Shown in pieces: positions 2,956-17,907 of a stretch of 24,046 nucleotides of DNA; the first letter of the stretch is position 1; every line of letters begins with the position of its first letter. A model generated the notes under the pieces. That model did not search any database. It was not told where the DNA came from and saw nothing but the letters and a program-made list of their open reading frames with translations. Source of the DNA: Candidatus Thorarchaeota archaeon SMTZ1-45 (lineage in GTDB: Archaea > Asgardarchaeota > Thorarchaeia > Thorarchaeales > Thorarchaeaceae); the NCBI GenBank assembly GCA_001563335.1, contig LRSL01000026.1:1-24046 (forward strand), written 5' to 3'. Position numbers and translations under genes: made by a program.

Positions 2956-3264
2956 TTAAACATCTATCCGACTCAATCATTTCCTCATGAGTTCTAAAAT
3001 GGTAATTAATTCATATCAAAGTTCTTTCCAACTGTACGTCGGAGCCTTATGAAGTACTGTCAGATTGTATATTAATTACGCACCTTCTCCACTTGTCTAG
3101 GAAAAAAGTACAAACAGTTTCATTCTCACTTAAGGCATTATGAGCTCTGTTGATGGATATAGTGCCTGTCATAGGTTTGGTAGCTCCAAGTTTTCATCAC
3201 ATGATAAGCGGGATTGTACCTGAGGATCTATTGAAGCGTTCAGACAGATGAGTGCTAAGCTACA

Positions 3265-3456
3265 TGTAAAGATAGAGAAGTAGTACGAATTGACATAGTT
3301 CTAATTACTGGCACTTGGGGTTATCTATGTAACGGGATTATTCAAGAAACTCGAATGGAGTTTTCCCATTTACAAGCCTCCTTAGAATATCCCGAGGTTG
3401 GTTGCAACCTCTGCAGCACTGTACTCAGGTGCTAATCTCACTAATGTCTTCTTTTG
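3265..3456. repeat. Direct repeat copy 1 (att-like): rpl23 3' end, SD/ATG hairpin and conserved block
   Basis: Aligns without gaps to 6874-7065 at offset 3609, with 23 mismatches in 192 nt by manual count. Confidence 0.95.
3382..3456 (-). pseudogene. Duplicated 3' fragment of rpl23 (QKKTLVRLAPEYSAAEVATNLGIF*)
   Basis: 73/75 nt identical to 6991-7065 (one synonymous change, one Ala>Thr). No in-frame start upstream before an in-frame TGA. Confidence 0.9.
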
Positions 3457-3511
3457 GGTTTTATTGTGTTGCAATAGGCCAGCTGGGAAGACATGAAGAT
3501 GTCATTGAGTG

Positions 3512-4189
3512 TCATCCGGATATCAGAGTCACCCTGATTGAGTAGGAGAACCATGTGCTCCCATAGAACTGGCTCGCCCAGACAGTGGCTTGGAATGGGA
3601 CACCTGTGCTCATATTCAATGTAGCATTCCACCCATGTCCTGCATCAATGTTGTAAGTCCTGTAACCGATTGAGAATGTTGACAAGCCACTGGAGGACAG
3701 ATAGGTGTCACATTGATACATATCTGTCGTGTCGGGATAGAATCCATCAATGCTGGTCCATCCTCCAACAGGCAAGATGGAATGGGATATCAGATCGTTG
3801 AGAAACAGATAGTCTTCACTTGGCAATTCGGTATTATTTACCAACTCAATAGGAGATATCAGACTCGTTTTGGTGTGCTCAATCACCCGGTCCACGAATG
3901 TATCAGATGTGAAGTCGGATGCCAAAGCAGGTAAATCATTGATTTTGACTGTGAATGAAGAACCATTGAGGTACCAATACGGTGCTTCAGAATCATTCCA
4001 GATAGAACCATTCGAAGGATCAAACACTCTCACAAACCCCTCAACCTCAACTGCGAATGACAGCGTGTCACCTTCACTGACCTGCCACTGCATAGTCGTG
4101 GACGACATGACCATTAATGCAACACTCCCAGCGGCAACGATTGTAATCACGAGTAAAGCCGATATTCTCTTGAAACTAGTCTTCATCAT
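3512..4189 (-). CDS. Membrane-anchored or secreted hypothetical protein
   Basis: N-terminal KR followed by a hydrophobic helix (ISALLVITIVAAGSVALMVM), then a beta-rich, Ser/Thr/aromatic-rich domain. Start probably ATG 4189 or 4186 rather than GTG 4198. Confidence 0.8.
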   Translation of the reverse strand: MMKTSFKRISALLVITIVAAGSVALMVMSSTTMQWQVSEGDTLSFAVEVEGFVRVFDPSNGSIWNDSEAPYWYLNGSSFTVKINDLPALASDFTSDTFVDRVIEHTKTSLISPIELVNNTELPSEDYLFLNDLISHSILPVGGWTSIDGFYPDTTDMYQCDTYLSSSGLSTFSIGYRTYNIDAGHGWNATLNMSTGVPFQATVWASQFYGSTWFSYSIRVTLISG

Positions 4190-4199
4190 ACTACACACC

Positions 4200-6626
4200 C
4201 TACCCTGGATTAATTCTAGACATGGTTTCTTTTGAAGACAACAGAAGCGGTAGGGCGTTCGGTATTTTGATCGTTGTCACCACAGGAAGAAACATTGCGT
4301 AGCTGGTCTGAATTGATTCACCAGTAAGAGTTTCCAATTCCATACCGCTTGATGCTGTCATCATCGGATTTGTTACAGTGTCAAAATGATACCAAAGCCT
4401 AAGGTTGAGAACGCGCAGATCGCTGCTGTGAAAGGTATACGTAGAGGCTCGTGCGAACTGTAGTCCAATGTACTTAATTAAACGGTTTCTCTCTCCTGCT
4501 GGAGTTGTAAAATGTGTATGACTCTGAGGCGTATCATCATCAAGCTCACTTTTTAGACTCCAAGCAGTGTGTGGATGAGGATCGAACCAGAACCTCCACT
4601 TCGCTATCCAGCTGTTTGAATGGGAACCCTCATACCACTCGTCATGTGTTGTACCTATACGCCAATAATCTAAGTAAGCCCTAGAAGTACTAGAATACCA
4701 AGAATCATACAGACAAAAGACCATTGACAACTCCTTATTCTCATCGTATAGAATTACAACCAAGTCGCCCATTCTATTTGGAGTGTCAGACAGTTCCAGA
4801 ATGGCCTCAAGAGCACGGAGGTCGCAGAGTGGGATAGAAGTCGGAAGGGTCTTGATAAACAAGGGACCATGTTTCCACTCAGATGAGGACTGTATTCCTG
4901 AACAATAAAGATATCCTGATTGACTGTAGAGGTTTCCTGATATGTCTAGAGTCCTATAAGTTTCAAAGCCATCAGCGGGATAAACGCGAGTCCATGTTGA
5001 TGTTGATGAGCAAGGATCATGCCACACGGTTTCGTAGTATGCTCCACGCAGCCAGTGCCACAAGCAGTATGTAGGTGCTTCGACAGGAGCTCCTGCAGAG
5101 AAAACACAGGGGTAATTCGGACAGGTTGTTTCTCCAATATAGTGAGGCATACCCAAATAGTGACCAAACTCGTGCATTAAGACTGCGCGTCTTTGCCAGC
5201 TAATTGAATATCCATATTGATTACACCAATCTATCCATGCCTGGTCCGCAACAGCAATAGTGTCACCGCCATAGAATCCTGCATTACCCTCGATGTAATG
5301 AACGAAGACACACCATAACCAATCGACATCACCTGCAGCTTCTGTCCAATGACCTAAATGACTAAAATACTGTGACTTGACCGACCACCAGTCGAAGTTT
5401 TGTGTAATAGTATCAGGGATGACTGAAGAAGACAAGCTTTGATCTAGAACGCAATCGACCCTATGATATGAGTGGGTTTTAAAAAAAGTTTCCAGATATT
5501 CTAATGCCTCGGAATCGGGTTGATGGTCATAACGATAGTCGATTTCGAGTGACGCTCCATCATGGTGAACCAGCATAACCGTGATTTTTTTGGCATATTC
5601 AGTACTTGAACATGAGAAGATATCAATAGTAATTTGATGAATTTCGCCATCGGGAAAATCACCCAGAGATATTTCATAATTCCCAGGAGAACTCCCCATG
5701 AAGACCAATCGGGAATCTAGATATACAAAGCATGAACGTGTTATACCATCCCATCCATTTTCAGTTTTTAGATTCAGGATTGTATTTGGTCCTGTTTCAA
5801 CTAGATACTCCATCTTGGAATGTTCTGATTGATGAGTGTACTCGCATTTCACATCGAGAGGTATATCTGCTGTATTATAGACCCAGAAGTACTCCAGTTT
5901 CCATGCTTTCTCAACATATGCTCCCCAATTAATTTGGATTCTAATGGTATGCACACCTCCCCACCATATTATTGGAGTCCATATGTCATCATGGAATCCT
6001 GTTGAACCGATAATGCATGAATAGAACTGACTTCCGTCCAAGCTCACCGTAAGAGTTCGAGCATATGTATCAGCAGCACGTGCTATCTCAAGATGAATTC
6101 GATATTGTGCACCCCACCAGCTGTCAGCCTCGAAATCAAAGTACATTTTTGAGTATCCAGTAAATGGAAAATAGTGTCCTTTCTTCGCAAAAGTCAAAGG
6201 AGTCATAAGATTGCCAGATTGCTGCGGCTCAGACTCAATCTGAGCGGCAGGAGGAGGTATTTCTTGGATTATATACTCGCAGTTGTTATCAACAGTGTAG
6301 TTCAAATCTTGATGGTCTGATGGTTCATCTTCCAGTAGGACAACAGCCCAAGATGGAATTGCAACAGCAGTCGTTATATTTTGATCCTTTTTTTCGTTTT
6401 CCCAGTCTGTTTCCATAAACCTCGTAATACACGGAATTGACCAGTCCTCAATTTCTTGCATTGGTTCATCAGAGAGAACGGACGGTAGATCGATATACTG
6501 CCGCTCTAATACTTCACTCTCTGATACTCTATCGTTTCTCGATACGGCTGCTACGGGATCTCCCATGGATAATGTTAAAATTAGCATTATAATGGCTAAT
6601 ATACTCGAAACTAGCTTCTTATTCAT
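4200..6626 (-). CDS. Secreted multidomain zinc metalloprotease (metzincin-like)
   Basis: Signal peptide MNKKLVSSILAIIMLILTLSMG. HExxHxxGxxH motif HEFGHYLGMPH at 5142-5174. Flanked by beta-rich domains. GGAG upstream of the start. Confidence 0.8.
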   Translation of the reverse strand: MNKKLVSSILAIIMLILTLSMGDPVAAVSRNDRVSESEVLERQYIDLPSVLSDEPMQEIEDWSIPCITRFMETDWENEKKDQNITTAVAIPSWAVVLLEDEPSDHQDLNYTVDNNCEYIIQEIPPPAAQIESEPQQSGNLMTPLTFAKKGHYFPFTGYSKMYFDFEADSWWGAQYRIHLEIARAADTYARTLTVSLDGSQFYSCIIGSTGFHDDIWTPIIWWGGVHTIRIQINWGAYVEKAWKLEYFWVYNTADIPLDVKCEYTHQSEHSKMEYLVETGPNTILNLKTENGWDGITRSCFVYLDSRLVFMGSSPGNYEISLGDFPDGEIHQITIDIFSCSSTEYAKKITVMLVHHDGASLEIDYRYDHQPDSEALEYLETFFKTHSYHRVDCVLDQSLSSSVIPDTITQNFDWWSVKSQYFSHLGHWTEAAGDVDWLWCVFVHYIEGNAGFYGGDTIAVADQAWIDWCNQYGYSISWQRRAVLMHEFGHYLGMPHYIGETTCPNYPCVFSAGAPVEAPTYCLWHWLRGAYYETVWHDPCSSTSTWTRVYPADGFETYRTLDISGNLYSQSGYLYCSGIQSSSEWKHGPLFIKTLPTSIPLCDLRALEAILELSDTPNRMGDLVVILYDENKELSMVFCLYDSWYSSTSRAYLDYWRIGTTHDEWYEGSHSNSWIAKWRFWFDPHPHTAWSLKSELDDDTPQSHTHFTTPAGERNRLIKYIGLQFARASTYTFHSSDLRVLNLRLWYHFDTVTNPMMTASSGMELETLTGESIQTSYAMFLPVVTTIKIPNALPLLLSSKETMSRINPG

Positions 6627-6873
6627 TCATACTCAAACTCCCAACAACTACGATTTATGCAGTAGCTACACGACGCTATTACTATTGTGCATCATCTTAA
6701 ATCCTCTTCGCTTCTGAGGGTTCTGTCACAAAACTCATGAGTTTCGTAACGCGAGAAAGTTTGCATCCCTGCATCATACCTGACCACCTTGGACAAGGTT
6801 TCCACGTTTCTTCTGTTGTCACATCTTAATCTCGGGTTTCTCCGAATAAGTCTGAGGTTCTTCTTCAACTGGG

Positions 6874-7065
6874 TGTAAAGATGGATGAGCAGTACGAATT
6901 GACACATTTCTAATTACTGGCACTTGGTGTCATCTGCGGAACTAAATCATTCAGGAGGCTCGAATAGAGTTTACCCATTCACAAGCCTCCTTAAAATATC
7001 CCGAGGTTGGTTGCAACCTCTGCAGCACTGTACTCAGGTGCTAATCTCACTAATGCCTTCTTTTG
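6874..7065. repeat. Direct repeat copy 2 (att-like), overlapping the functional rpl23 3' end
   Basis: Partner of 3265-3456. Confidence 0.95.
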
Positions 7066-7254
7066 TCCGTTGGGCATTATGAGCGTGTTGACTTTCTCGA
7101 CCACAACTTCATAGAGGGTTTCAACAGCCCACTTGATTGTGTTCTTGTTTGCGGATCGAACAACATAGAAGATGAGCTTGTTCTCTGCATCTACAGCCTC
7201 GAGACTGGCCTCTGTCACAACAGGGCGAATGATGATTTCATTTGGATCTCTCAT
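6991..7254 (-). CDS. rpl23: 50S ribosomal protein uL23
   Basis: IIIRPVVTE...NKLIFYV...KKALVRL...EVATNLGIF. GAGGTGA SD before ATG 7254. Follows rpl4. Confidence 0.97.
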   Translation of the reverse strand: MRDPNEIIIRPVVTEASLEAVDAENKLIFYVVRSANKNTIKWAVETLYEVVVEKVNTLIMPNGQKKALVRLAPEYSAAEVATNLGIF

Positions 7255-7264
7255 TTTGGTCACC

Positions 7265-8056
7265 TCAAGCGAACAGATTCTCCTTCTCAAGCCTATCAAT
7301 GGCAGACTTTGTCCAGACCACTAGGCGTCCTGGATGTGTCCCAGGAGCGAGAAGTTCTGCGTTTAGCCCATGAACCTCTGTAATGTCAACTCCCGGGAGA
7401 TTTCTAACAGCTCTTGTGATGCCCAAGTCTTCACCAACAACAATGAGCAGTGACTTGGGAGTCTTCATTTTACGACCACGCATCTTGCCCTTACCAGCTC
7501 TGACACTACGGCCATCTCTTGCTCTGTCAAGATCATCAGCTAGACCTAAGAAGACCAATGCCTCAAAGGCATCCTTTGTTGTGGACAAAGACTCAAGCTT
7601 ACTATCAACAACCAATGGTATCTCAGGAACATTATCTATATTGTGACCCCGTGCCTTAACGAAGGTGGGATTTGCAGAAGCTGATATTGCTGATCGGATA
7701 GCCAGTCGGTTTTCTTTTGCATTAATCCGCTCAACGATAACCTTCCTAGATTCCGGAGGATGTGCGACTCTCCCTCCAACAGTGCCAGGAGCAAACCCTC
7801 CTTTGTTGGCTGCACTTGTTCCACTTCCTTTGATTCTAGGCACCCTTGATTTCCCGTGTCCAGTCTGCCAACTCTGAGCTGTATTTCGCTTGCCAGCTAG
7901 TTCATCAACTCCATGAGGTTGATACCTTCGTGATTGGATTGCTAAAACAGCCCTCTTAATCACATCTGGACGATATGGTGTGTCAAACTGTGACGGTAGT
8001 TTTACTGTTTCCTTTGTTGCCTTACCCTTCAATGAATATGTCTTTACGCTTGCCAT
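7265..8056 (-). CDS. rpl4: 50S ribosomal protein uL4
   Basis: RPDVIKRAV, GHGKSRVPR, RAGKGKMRGR and LLAPGTHPGRLVVWT are archaeal/eukaryotic uL4 motifs. Start ATG 8056 (alternatives 8062/8065). Confidence 0.97.
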   Translation of the reverse strand: MASVKTYSLKGKATKETVKLPSQFDTPYRPDVIKRAVLAIQSRRYQPHGVDELAGKRNTAQSWQTGHGKSRVPRIKGSGTSAANKGGFAPGTVGGRVAHPPESRKVIVERINAKENRLAIRSAISASANPTFVKARGHNIDNVPEIPLVVDSKLESLSTTKDAFEALVFLGLADDLDRARDGRSVRAGKGKMRGRKMKTPKSLLIVVGEDLGITRAVRNLPGVDITEVHGLNAELLAPGTHPGRLVVWTKSAIDRLEKENLFA

Positions 8057-8071
8057 AACCATCAACCTCTC

Positions 8072-9079
8072 CTATTGTTTTGATGTGGTGCTAATGTAGC
8101 TCACCTGAGTAGGTGCATCTACATGTCCCTTCTTGGGACGAATAGCGAATCTAAATCGCACAGGTCGCTTTACCGTACCAGGGATAGATCCATGAAGCAT
8201 TATGTAGTCGCCACGAATCACACCGTAGTTGACGAACCCTCCAGAGGGTGTAATTTCCTCACCACGCTCTCCCATCTTCAGAACTTTATTATTGAAACTG
8301 GTTCGAGTGTGAAAACCGGTCTGTCCAGGACGAGGTACGGTATATCTAATGTTTGTTGGAGTCCACGGACCAATGCAACCCACACCTCGTTTTGTCTTTC
8401 TTGATTTGTGTTGAAGAATTCGTATTCCCCAGCGACGTACAGGACCCTGAAAACCATGACCCTTGGTCACAGCGATGCTGTCAACGAGAATTCCTTCATT
8501 GAGAATATCTGCTACTCTCACATCGGTGCCAAGAATACTCTGAGCGTAGTCATAGGCTTTCTTGACACTTGGAGCACCTACTTTGTACTCAGTAATGTCA
8601 GGTTTCTTCTTCGGTATTCCTGCAAGTCTTGGTTGAGTGTGAACTAGCATTCGAATCTCAGCCAGAGTGTCGAGCTTCTCCTCGAACTCTTTCACTTTGG
8701 CTCCATGGTCATAATCTTTTGGAAAAGGCATGGCTTTTCTAAGGTCCTCTGATAGACCTTCAGCAAGAACCTCAACAACCAGTTTTAATCCATATGGAGT
8801 CGTTTTGTAGCCACGAATCGAGAATGGTCTGATTGGCGGTGTATCAATGACTGTAACTGGAATCACGGTTTCCTGTCCCTTAAAAGGACTATTGGGGCTT
8901 TCAATTGTCATGACCGCATGTGTCATACCTGCCTTGTAACCAACAAAACCAAGAAGTTTTGCAGAACTGCCTTTATAAGAGGGCCAATTTTTGATCCGAG
9001 GTACGAATTTGGATGCTCTTCCTCGAGGAAGGTATGCAAGGCTACCTCGTCTGGGGGCATGTTTTTTCCTATGTGCCAT
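8072..9079 (-). CDS. rpl3: 50S ribosomal protein uL3
   Basis: HAPRRGSLAYLPRGRA, GYKAGMTH, TKGHGFQGPVRRWG, GQTGFHTRT. GGTGA SD. Confidence 0.98.
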   Translation of the reverse strand: MAHRKKHAPRRGSLAYLPRGRASKFVPRIKNWPSYKGSSAKLLGFVGYKAGMTHAVMTIESPNSPFKGQETVIPVTVIDTPPIRPFSIRGYKTTPYGLKLVVEVLAEGLSEDLRKAMPFPKDYDHGAKVKEFEEKLDTLAEIRMLVHTQPRLAGIPKKKPDITEYKVGAPSVKKAYDYAQSILGTDVRVADILNEGILVDSIAVTKGHGFQGPVRRWGIRILQHKSRKTKRGVGCIGPWTPTNIRYTVPRPGQTGFHTRTSFNNKVLKMGERGEEITPSGGFVNYGVIRGDYIMLHGSIPGTVKRPVRFRFAIRPKKGHVDAPTQVSYISTTSKQ

Positions 9080-9090
9080 TTTATGTCACC

Positions 9091-9168
9091 TTGTAGTTTT
9101 GCAGCCTTCGTGGTACCAAAATCATAATGAAGTCGAATAATCACACCACTAGGCTATTCATACTACAA
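9091..9168 (-). ncRNA. Candidate structured 5' leader (ribosomal leader) of the rpl3 operon
   Basis: Three nested helices TTGTAGT/ACTACAA, AGCCT/AGGCT and GTGGT/ACCAC, ending right at the SD. Confidence 0.55.
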
Positions 9169-9189
9169 TGCGAGTCGATTCAGAGTGTG

Positions 9190-13083: not shown

Positions 13084-13201
13084 GCCGAGGTAGCCAAGCC
13101 CGGATTAAGGCGCCGGTCTTGAAAACCAGCTTCTTCTGAAGCAGAAAACAAGCTAACCGGTGTGTTCGCACTCATGAGTTCAAATCTCATCCTCGGCGCC
13201 A
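13084..13201 (+). tRNA. tRNA-Ser(TGA) with a 31-nt intron at 37/38 (13124-13154), CCA encoded
   Basis: Acceptor GCCGAGG/CCTCGGC, G73, CCA. Anticodon stem CCGGT/ACCGG with TGA at 13120-13122. Variable arm GTG-TTCG-CAC. T-loop TTCAAAT. Splice helix CTTG/CAAG. Confidence 0.95.
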
Positions 13202-17769: not shown

Positions 17770-17907
17770 GGGGTGGTGGCCTAGTCCGGTATGGCGACGG
17801 GCTCCAGATCTAAGTGCACTTTGCACCTGAAATGGACGGGGTCAATAAAAGACCGTCGTCATGAAGACACTCGTCGATCGGGAGTTCAAATCTCCCTCAC
17901 CCCACCA
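17770..17907 (+). tRNA. tRNA-Trp(CCA) with a 61-nt intron at 37/38 (17808-17868), CCA encoded
   Basis: Acceptor GGGGTGG/TCACCCC, A73, CCA. Anticodon stem ACGGG/CTCGT with CCA at 17804-17806. T-arm GGGAG-TTCAAAT-CTCCC. Confidence 0.93.

Follow-up and report, generated by a model that had tools for sequence, protein, structure and literature searches.

Why should a ribosomal protein operon in a Thorarchaeon end in a hairpin that hides a ribosome-binding site with no gene behind it? The 24,046-nt stretch analysed here (contig LRSL01000026.1 of Candidatus Thorarchaeota archaeon SMTZ1-45; the window) carries rpl3, rpl4 and rpl23 on the minus strand, and directly behind the stop codon of rpl23 lies a stem-loop that contains a Shine-Dalgarno (SD) sequence and an ATG. 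A first-pass annotation made from the letters alone had read this stem-loop, which occurs twice, as an RNA element that silences an orphan ribosome-binding site or ends and stabilises the truncated mRNA, or alternatively as an attC-like recombination substrate. Comparison with related genomes leads to another answer. We are confident that the hairpin marks the left boundary of mobile DNA that entered codons 2-4 of the uL2 gene rpl2. One of its arms is host sequence, and the other is an inverted copy of the flank that quite likely arose at the DNA level. That the stem has no selected role as RNA is about an even call.

Both hairpins were found on the minus strand where the annotation had placed them, GGAGGCTTGTGAATGGGTAAACTCTATTCGAGCCTCC at 6990-6954 (copy 2) and GGAGGCTTGTAAATGGGAAAACTCCATTCGAGTTTCT at 3381-3345 (copy 1), each directly 3' of the TAA of the L23 gene or its fragment. 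The 5' arm of copy 2 consists of the SD GGAGG (6990-6986), a 7-nt spacer, an ATG (6978-6976) and GGT AAA C of uL2. As RNA of the minus strand, copy 2 folds with -18.2 kcal/mol (z -5.70) and copy 1 with -12.8 kcal/mol (z -3.81); in both cases none of 200 dinucleotide shuffles folded as well. The plus strand gave weaker folds (copy 2, -12.3 kcal/mol, 3 of 200 shuffles as good; copy 1, -6.7 kcal/mol, 24 of 200).

The 5' arm is indeed the true junction between rpl23 and rpl2. In the two closest relatives (G026 and G010) the intact junction reads TAAGGAGGCTTGTGAATGGGTAAAC, continues with GAGTTCTGG and runs into uL2 (MGKRVLVQRKGRG). Arm and loop of copy 2 are letter-identical to it, and the homology to the relatives stops after ATGGGTAAAC, within the loop. 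Likewise, same-genus matches to the repeat that contains the hairpin (25 of 27 genomes matched) end at query position 107-112, i. e. in the loop, in all hits. Therefore the 5' arm is host sequence and the break lies in rpl2 codons 2-4. The genome that holds the window (G000; 3.54 Mb in 119 contigs, completeness 87.7%) has its sole uL2 gene on a different contig, C42, the window's own contig being C26. On C42 rpl2 resumes at codon 2 (GGG AAA AGA GTC...), and behind it lie the RHH and FtsZ-like genes also found in the intact relatives, whose order is rpl3-rpl4-rpl23-rpl2, RHH gene, FtsZ-like gene (the latter named by eye). Foreign genes precede it, which encode a membrane protein, a 909-aa HerA/TraG-like ATPase (DUF87, 1e-10) and a 794-aa HTH-LAGLIDADG protein. 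The annotation's idea that the element had captured the rpl23-rpl2 junction hence applies to copy 1 only, which is a displaced duplicate; in copy 2 the junction is still in place and was orphaned by the insertion. The features of the window are listed in Table 1.

Table 1. Features of the window around the disrupted rpl23-rpl2 junction
Feature	Position	Strand	Basis and remarks
rpl3 (uL3), first gene of the operon	8072-9079	-	Pfam Ribosomal_L3, 1e-88
Leader upstream of rpl3, copied at the far end of the insert	about 9080-9170	-	aligned with the DNA upstream of rpl2
rpl4 (uL4)	7265-8065	-	Pfam Ribosomal_L4, 3.1e-39
rpl23 (uL23)	6991-7299 (open reading frame, ORF); likely start ATG at 7254, stop TAA 6993-6991	-	Pfam Ribosomal_L23, 1.2e-15
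5' arm and loop, orphan host rpl23-rpl2 junction	6969-6990	-	identical to the intact junction of G026 and G010
3' arm, initial 15 nt of the insert, mirroring the 5' arm imperfectly	6954-6968	-	not in intact relatives; fold; inverted alignment
Direct repeat, copy 2: last 75 nt of rpl23, junction, 3' arm, about 80 nt of insert	6874-7065	-	position-by-position alignment
Direct repeat, copy 1: displaced duplicate of the whole left boundary, with hairpin 3381-3345	3265-3456	-	repeat search, alignment
Segment between the repeat copies	3457-6873	-	ORFs 4200-6626 (808 aa) and 3512-4198 (228 aa); read depth as in the flanks
Further inserted DNA to the contig end	1-3264	-	437-aa ORF 1642-2955; no rpl2 follows

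The two hairpins are embedded in a direct repeat of 192 nt with 88% identity, of which no third copy was found in the 119 contigs of G000. Copy 1 lies 3.6 kb deeper in the insert and includes 75 nt of rpl23. The copies differ at 4 of 97 positions where the repeat is host-derived and at 19 of 95 where it stems from the insert (Fisher p = 7e-4). This sharp change in divergence at the loop means that the two parts of copy 1 have different histories, which fits the arrival of a second, related left end via recombination within the flanking rpl23 sequence. The inserted DNA past the arm, compared in direct and inverted orientation with the rpl3 leader, the rpl23 end and the 5' part of rpl2, gave no z-score above 3.2. 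The identity of both flanks to eight relatives, followed in 90-nt bins for a sign of co-conversion, showed no step, the nearest relative being only about 83% identical overall. Splicing of the insert as a group I or bulge-helix-bulge (BHB) intron and ribosome bypass were considered and dropped; the insert measures at least 13 kb with genes on both strands, and the exon ends do not fit the U/G junction of group I introns.

The same site is broken in other genomes. Among 30 loci examined, the end of rpl23 was found in 27; 24 of these run straight into rpl2 and three are broken (G000, G007 and G011). An order-wide search with the intact junction matched 81 of 87 genomes, and in seven of the 81 the match is split at rpl2 codons 2-4, with separate rpl23 and rpl2 halves (G000, G007, G011, G069, G077, G072 and G074). 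Metagenome contigs added two loci, L073 with both sides and L072 with the rpl2 side only. Besides G000, the site is thus disrupted in G007, G011, G069, G077 and L073, and the rpl2 side of L072 is alike. Within the genus it is occupied in 3 of 26 matched genomes and empty in syntenic relatives. No further locus was found in a search of viral contigs with the protein alignment or in a search of genome contigs with a single protein.

What separates the two halves differs from locus to locus: about 3 kb with only a 788-aa gene in L073, about 3.6 kb with an endonuclease-like gene and one ORF in G011, about 2.5 kb without an endonuclease-like gene in G069, and 66 nt only in G072 (contig C231, locus L110) and G074 (contig C63, locus L111). 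The 66-nt insert sits between an SD-ATG-GGN-ARR sequence and a second SD followed by rpl2, and its right part is homologous to the right end of the longer cassettes. The 66-nt inserts resemble scars left by cassettes since lost, with the target site still split. An older remnant of an endonuclease C-terminus, downstream of the full-length endonuclease-like gene, adjoins rpl2 in L072 and G007 (L072 3819-4151, 110 aa; L051 about 3250-3330). Together with the second left boundary in G000, these remnants suggest that the site was overwritten repeatedly, which points to nested or repeated insertions at the same place.

To compare the left junctions, the complement of the 79-85 nt ending at the break was aligned with the first 90 nt of the insert. 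In G007 the match covers 25 of 32 columns and extends via CCTCC to TTAGAAT, i. e. into the stop and last codons of rpl23 (8 of 500 shuffles scored as high). In G069, 25 of 32 columns match as well and include the complement of the species-specific spacer CGTTACT of this host (1 of 500). The inverted copy in copy 1 of G000 continues to ATCCCG (24 of 500), and that in L073 is displaced by 26-28 nt from the break (22 of 500). Copy 2 of G000 was not significant in this alignment (92 of 500), and there was no significant inverted copy in G077 (54 of 500) or G011 (379 of 500). The junctions fold with -21.4 kcal/mol in G007 (45 nt), -27.3 kcal/mol in G069 (50 nt), -19.8 kcal/mol in L073 (70 nt) and -5.6 kcal/mol in G011.

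The stem of G069 has 21 pairs, and its core, with CTATGGGTAGAC before and GTCTACCCATAG after the break, is a perfect palindrome centred on the break. The centre, GAC followed by GTC, lies at the break in G007 and G069, the two hosts with ACGT there, and the hosts without ACGT (G011, L073 and G077) have no palindrome at the break. Spacer positions 7, 9, 10, 11 and 12 differ on both sides between the hairpins of G000 and G007 and that of G069; this register is manual, as MAFFT did not bring the four hairpins into register and the pairs were read by hand. The spacing of the arms ranges from a 5-nt loop in G000 over 4-10 nt in G007 to about 28 nt in L073. In the DNA past the arm, some sequence is common to the left ends of G000 and G007 but not to those of G011, L073, G069 and G077. 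At least four left ends are unrelated, and they break at slightly different bases.

In G000, too, the inverted repeat is longer than the first-pass annotation had it. Copy 1 extends it by some 13 nt into the final codons of rpl23, up to CCCG, the complement of CGGG in rpl23. Copy 2 has four changes at 6948-6943, including a transversion, by which part of this extension was lost. The "antisense arm" of the annotation does bury the SD and the AUG in the predicted fold, but the most plausible view of it is a duplication of the flank in inverted orientation that runs into rpl23, and such a duplication needs no selection for RNA folding. The idea that all 192 nt of the repeat form a decayed palindrome (97 + 95 nt) was rejected except for the extension of about 13 nt: beyond the 15-nt arm, the score of copy 2 was reached by 950 of 1000 shuffles, and copy 1 was borderline (61 of 1000).

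The annotation had noted six differences between the two hairpins. They are where the annotation had put them, one in the bulge (6980), one in the loop (6973) and four C/U exchanges in the 3' arm (6966, 6958, 6957 and 6954), and for these 37 nt it is correct that all of them preserve the fold. As evidence this carries little weight because of the base composition. The four changes in the stem all fall in the 3' arm and are transitions; there, 11 of the 15 possible transitions (73%) keep a pair since the 5' arm is rich in G and U. The probability that four out of four changes keep a pair is 0.29 for transitions in the 3' arm and 0.13 for transitions anywhere in the stem; it drops to 0.002 only if all substitutions are taken as equally probable, and transitions make up 17 of the 23 differences across the repeat. 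The strand-specific swaps between G-C and G-U are weak evidence for selection on an RNA. Moreover, the 3' arm differs between the copies at 4 of 15 positions and the remaining insert-derived part at 15 of 80. The arm diverges as fast as the rest of the insert-derived sequence, and thus shows no sign of purifying selection.

In contrast to the left ends, all right ends are homologous. They are diverged copies of the host's own leader upstream of rpl3, including its SD (AGGTGA) and ATG. In G000 the copy (C42, locus L032, 5840-5960) aligns with 9080-9170 of the window, the native leader ...TGTAGTAAGAATAGCC...GGCTGCAAAACTACAGGTGAAAATTAATG corresponding to ...TTTGTAGTAAGAATAGG...GACCTGCAAAACTACAGGTGAATCATATG in the cassette, and likewise in G011, G007, L072, L073, G069 and G077. 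In eight of nine disrupted loci the copied ATG opens an upstream ORF (uORF) of 19-31 codons. Its stop, TAG or TGA, lies 2-7 nt before the GGN codon of rpl2 or overlaps it, in the +1 frame, and a second SD, GGAGGGG, is placed inside its end. The rpl2 gene is without ATG in eight of the nine loci (L032 5930-5990, L050, L051, L072, L073, L106, L078 and L111), and in four of the nine there is no in-frame ATG, GTG or TTG. G072 keeps TGA-G-ATG and looks like an older state; G074 has ATA. From this layout, leader copy, uORF and second SD probably feed the cut-off rpl2, which would then be translated by termination-reinitiation on a non-AUG codon.

A gene for a protein of 750-800 aa adjoins rpl2 in five of seven loci (G000, G007, G011, L072 and L073). 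The protein is 63-67% identical among G000, G011 and G007 and comprises three N-terminal HTH repeats, a further domain and a double-LAGLIDADG endonuclease fold. With the AlphaFold model of the 794-aa G000 protein (mean predicted local distance difference test score, pLDDT, 77) the top Foldseek matches were PI-SceI, the TliVMA intein endonuclease, I-Tsp061I and I-DmoI. LAGLIDADG endonucleases led both fold searches; VIA-align Z scores for model residues 477-757 were 16.5 (7qsu), 14.9 (I-Tsp061I) and 13.8 (I-DmoI), and the superposition on I-DmoI gave a root mean square deviation of 2.9 A over about 170 of 183-191 residues. The two motifs read FFGLGLSDG and NMWPEDG, so that the catalytic, metal-binding acidic residue is kept in each motif, and D494, G495, E590, D591 and G592 are invariant in 21 aligned sequences. 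Pfam and PDB-sequence profiles detected HTH families only and no LAGLIDADG domain. WhiA, a non-cutting relative, scores as high (Z 15.6); from the model we can therefore only infer that the protein is a DNA-cutting endonuclease. A search gave 19 further homologues (P0002-P0020). Many paralogues with 25-40% identity exist in this archaeal family, often just downstream of a HerA-like ATPase gene. G011 holds a second such pair of an ATPase and an HTH-LAGLIDADG-like gene 12 kb beyond rpl2 (G011:C215:25455-30435), with one in-frame TAG in each gene.

In the interpretation that we prefer for both ends, the empty site would be cleaved by the endonuclease near rpl2 codons 3-4, and the two sides of the cassette would then be joined in different ways. 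The right side would be inherited or joined by homology, since all right ends are homologous. The left side would be joined illegitimately, since at least four left ends are unrelated and the bases at which they break differ slightly. The inverted copy of the flank would be made at the DNA level during this left joining; it could come about by fold-back or by templated repair, or else by a head-to-head join at ACGT, which is self-complementary and forms the centre of the palindrome in G007 and G069. A fresh inverted copy at each illegitimate joining would explain without any selection why the arm matches the spacer of the respective host, why the geometry varies and why ACGT stands at the centre. 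On any read-through transcript the stem would form and close off the orphan SD and AUG, which we take for a consequence of the stem and not for its cause. We regard a junction palindrome of DNA-level origin without a selected role as having slightly better than even prospects of being the right reading of the hairpin.

Several points weigh against such an origin without a role. G069 has lost the endonuclease gene and should be an old insert, yet it has the most perfect palindrome, whereas G011 has an intact endonuclease gene and almost no stem. The quality of the stem is therefore not a simple decay clock, and would fit maintenance by selection or by template switching; template switching at quasipalindromes, which is known from bacteria, could keep the arms alike without selection. 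An inverted copy is present in three of about five unrelated left ends, which is many for a rare by-product of repair and could reflect preferential survival of junctions that fold. The mismatched pairs in G000 and G007 are all G-U on the transcribed strand and none is A-C. The 66-nt scar alleles of G072 and G074, in which the first ATG is still the start of a uORF, have no occluding stem. Finally, contigs C26 and C42 are not bridged and only presumed to flank a single insert of 13 kb or more; that the protein cleaves, where it would cut and how the ends would be joined are predictions.

The alternative that survives best, and which we consider possible but clearly less probable, is a selected RNA element. 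According to this reading the stem behind the rpl23 stop is kept to bury the orphan SD and AUG, thereby stopping ribosomes from reading into the cassette, and the truncated rpl3-rpl4-rpl23 mRNA might in addition gain a protected 3' end from it. The predicted fold of copy 2 in G000 does occlude the ribosome-binding site (the SD is unpaired with a probability of 0.00 and the AUG with one of 0.03), and the ensembles predicted for G007, G069 and L073 almost never leave the two unpaired either. Opening the site would cost 16.0 kcal/mol in copy 2 of G000, 13.7 kcal/mol in G007 and 17.5 kcal/mol in G069 (0 of 200 shuffles each) and 11.1 kcal/mol in L073 (13 of 200), compared with 1.6-6.7 kcal/mol in six of seven intact junctions and 1.3 and 3.5 kcal/mol in the scar alleles G072 and G074. 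However, one intact control reaches 12.5 kcal/mol, and the cost is insignificant in G011 (4.5 kcal/mol, 172 of 200 shuffles as high), G077 (6.1 kcal/mol, 64 of 200) and copy 1 of G000 (8.2 kcal/mol, 39 of 200). Occlusion is clearly significant in only three of six independent junctions.

The sense strand folds better than the antisense strand (-20.8 vs -14.4, -23.8 vs -14.1 and -26.1 vs -20.6 kcal/mol), the complementarity follows the species-specific spacer, and the best stem is found in the oldest-looking insert (G069), all of which a selected RNA would account for. On the other hand, the complementarity extends past the SD into rpl23 codons, which is unneeded for occlusion, and no double compensatory change was found within one junction lineage. 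The divergence of the 3' arm between the G000 copies and the G-C/G-U swaps, both as expected without selection, also count against an RNA. The gain from silencing would be small, since the junk ORFs that start at the orphan ATG, as read by eye, have only 12-34 codons. Nor is the hairpin a terminator of the scanned kind: a terminator scan of 6600-7300 does not list it, and the stem lacks the T-run (the tail is TGAATGATTTAG) that together with a G+C-rich stem would mark an intrinsic terminator. An Rfam scan of the window gave no match at the hairpin. Of the public sequencing runs listed as containing 3200-7400, none is recorded as RNA.

A wider scheme would combine both ends, although we hold it as somewhat doubtful. 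It posits an archaeal family of HTH-LAGLIDADG cassettes that invades the uL2 start codon and compensates its host on either side. At the right end, the copied rpl3 promoter and leader together with a uORF ending on rpl2 codon 1-2 would drive AUG-less synthesis of uL2 through termination-reinitiation. At the left end, the mirrored target would fold on the operon transcript as an insulator that closes the orphan ribosome-binding site. Imprecise loss of the cassette would leave the 66-nt scars, which would be immune to the endonuclease.

The mirrored sequence could also act as DNA, namely as a half-site bound by the HTH-LAGLIDADG protein of the cassette and serving as operator, decoy or immunity site. 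The model for this is I-TevI of phage T4, which represses its own gene via an operator that resembles its homing site. What is mirrored corresponds to the left half of the site that the protein would target, with the centre of the palindrome at the break, L073 has two direct copies of CTTCCCATTC..TACC at a distance of 30 nt, and the protein has three HTH repeats besides its nuclease fold. We consider this reading unlikely, because the spacing of the arms is variable, G069 keeps the palindrome without the endonuclease gene, and G011 has the gene without the palindrome.

The attC-like or other single-strand recombination substrate of the first-pass annotation did not hold up and is very improbable. 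The hairpin shares with integron attC sites, which stand at the ends of gene cassettes, an imperfect stem with extrahelical bases (here a 2-nt bulge), and it is found at both sides of a 3.4-kb segment with two genes. But a search for PF00589 gave no match in the 87.7%-complete G000, i. e. no tyrosine recombinase and not even one of the Xer type, while the control search was positive in 14 of 14 genomes. The genome has just two copies, 88% identical, and hence no cassette array with sequence-diverse hairpins. The repeated unit includes 75 nt of rpl23, one arm being host coding and junction sequence. No core of the GTTRRRY type, as known from attC, was seen at the stem ends, and the spacer between the arms is not fixed as in the att core of a tyrosine recombinase.

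Finally, chance or an assembly artefact can be dismissed as hardly credible: G000 is a metagenome bin with 5.8% contamination, and unitigs break at a 61-nt stretch common to both repeat copies, but none of 200 shuffles folds as well, the same kind of junction occurs in other genomes, copy 2 is covered without a difference by DNA contigs from all four public runs (four studies; one of the runs may be the source sample), a single run contig (6672-7210) spans insert, hairpin and rpl23 body, and the read depth of the flanks equals that of the middle segment in three runs (about 10 in run X1).

Some observations concern the rest of the window. The 808-aa ORF between the repeat copies has a hydrophobic N-terminus and, by eye, an HEFGH motif; the 228-aa ORF next to it is membrane-anchored, and Pfam assigned no family to either. 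At position 6994, rpl23 of G000 carries a synonymous C-to-T change (TTC to TTT) that is absent from copy 1 and from all 26 other loci with a readable rpl23 end. The change creates TATTTTAA at the rpl23 stop, immediately downstream of a small stem (7020-7003) that does appear in the terminator scan. The only Rfam matches in the window are two tRNA genes on the plus strand (13084-13198, 115 nt; 17770-17904, 135 nt). Both match the 71-position model in full, and each probably holds an intron.

The hairpin itself is a modest feature, but it flagged a locus that is an unusual home for a selfish element in several Thorarchaeota. The host tolerates the hit, probably by way of the copy of the operon's own leader that the cassette places before the cut-off uL2 gene. 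In the full texts open to our literature search we found no description of an endonuclease cassette that sits inside the first codons of uL2 and splits the operon. The series of loci, from a fresh palindrome over decayed stems to the 66-nt scar, would allow selection and repair to be compared as causes for the upkeep of palindromes, and would also allow non-AUG starts by archaeal ribosomes to be tested. For scans of RNA structure the locus carries a caution: beside a purine-rich SD, G-U "covariation" arises from base composition alone.

Among known systems, the left junction can be compared with palindromic or templated insertions at sites of double-strand-break repair, such as those made by snap-back synthesis or the P nucleotides left after hairpin opening. 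Both show an inverted flank copy that starts at the break or close to it, matches the local sequence and varies in geometry. The arms described here, with 15-32 aligned positions, are long for such events, and the best example stands in the oldest-looking insert. The fold on the transcript has a counterpart in phage T4, where hairpins sequester the ribosome-binding sites of endonuclease genes: in both cases a stem-loop on the read-through transcript of a highly expressed upstream gene buries an SD and a start codon. Unlike in T4, the buried site here belongs to the host as an orphan and not to the endonuclease, and its burial is a predicted one.

As a whole, the cassette appears to work like the free-standing homing endonuclease genes of T-even phages, the seg and mob genes of "intronless homing". 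Shared features are an endonuclease gene at a fixed place between conserved syntenic genes, a patchy spread among close relatives (here 3 of 26 genomes of the genus) and degenerate or lost stages (here G069 without the gene and the 66-nt scars). The left ends, however, are not all homologous, and therefore plain two-sided homing does not explain every junction. In its fold, the protein matches the LAGLIDADG enzymes borne by archaeal introns and inteins: I-DmoI, I-Tsp061I, PI-SceI and TliVMA share the two-domain architecture (Z 13.8-16.5, about 170-190 residues) and both acidic motif residues, yet the cassette has no intron or intein and its protein is larger (750-800 aa) and carries HTH repeats. 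In contrast to the GIY-YIG or HNH enzymes of the phage genes, the enzyme of the cassette is of the LAGLIDADG type. The cassette resides in an archaeal chromosome inside the first codons of an essential gene, where it splits an operon, brings along a copy of the operon's leader, can carry a cargo of at least 13 kb and has a palindromic left junction. The cassette thus differs from the known kinds in its archaeal chromosomal host, in its position at the start of an essential gene, in the copied leader and in the palindrome at its left end.

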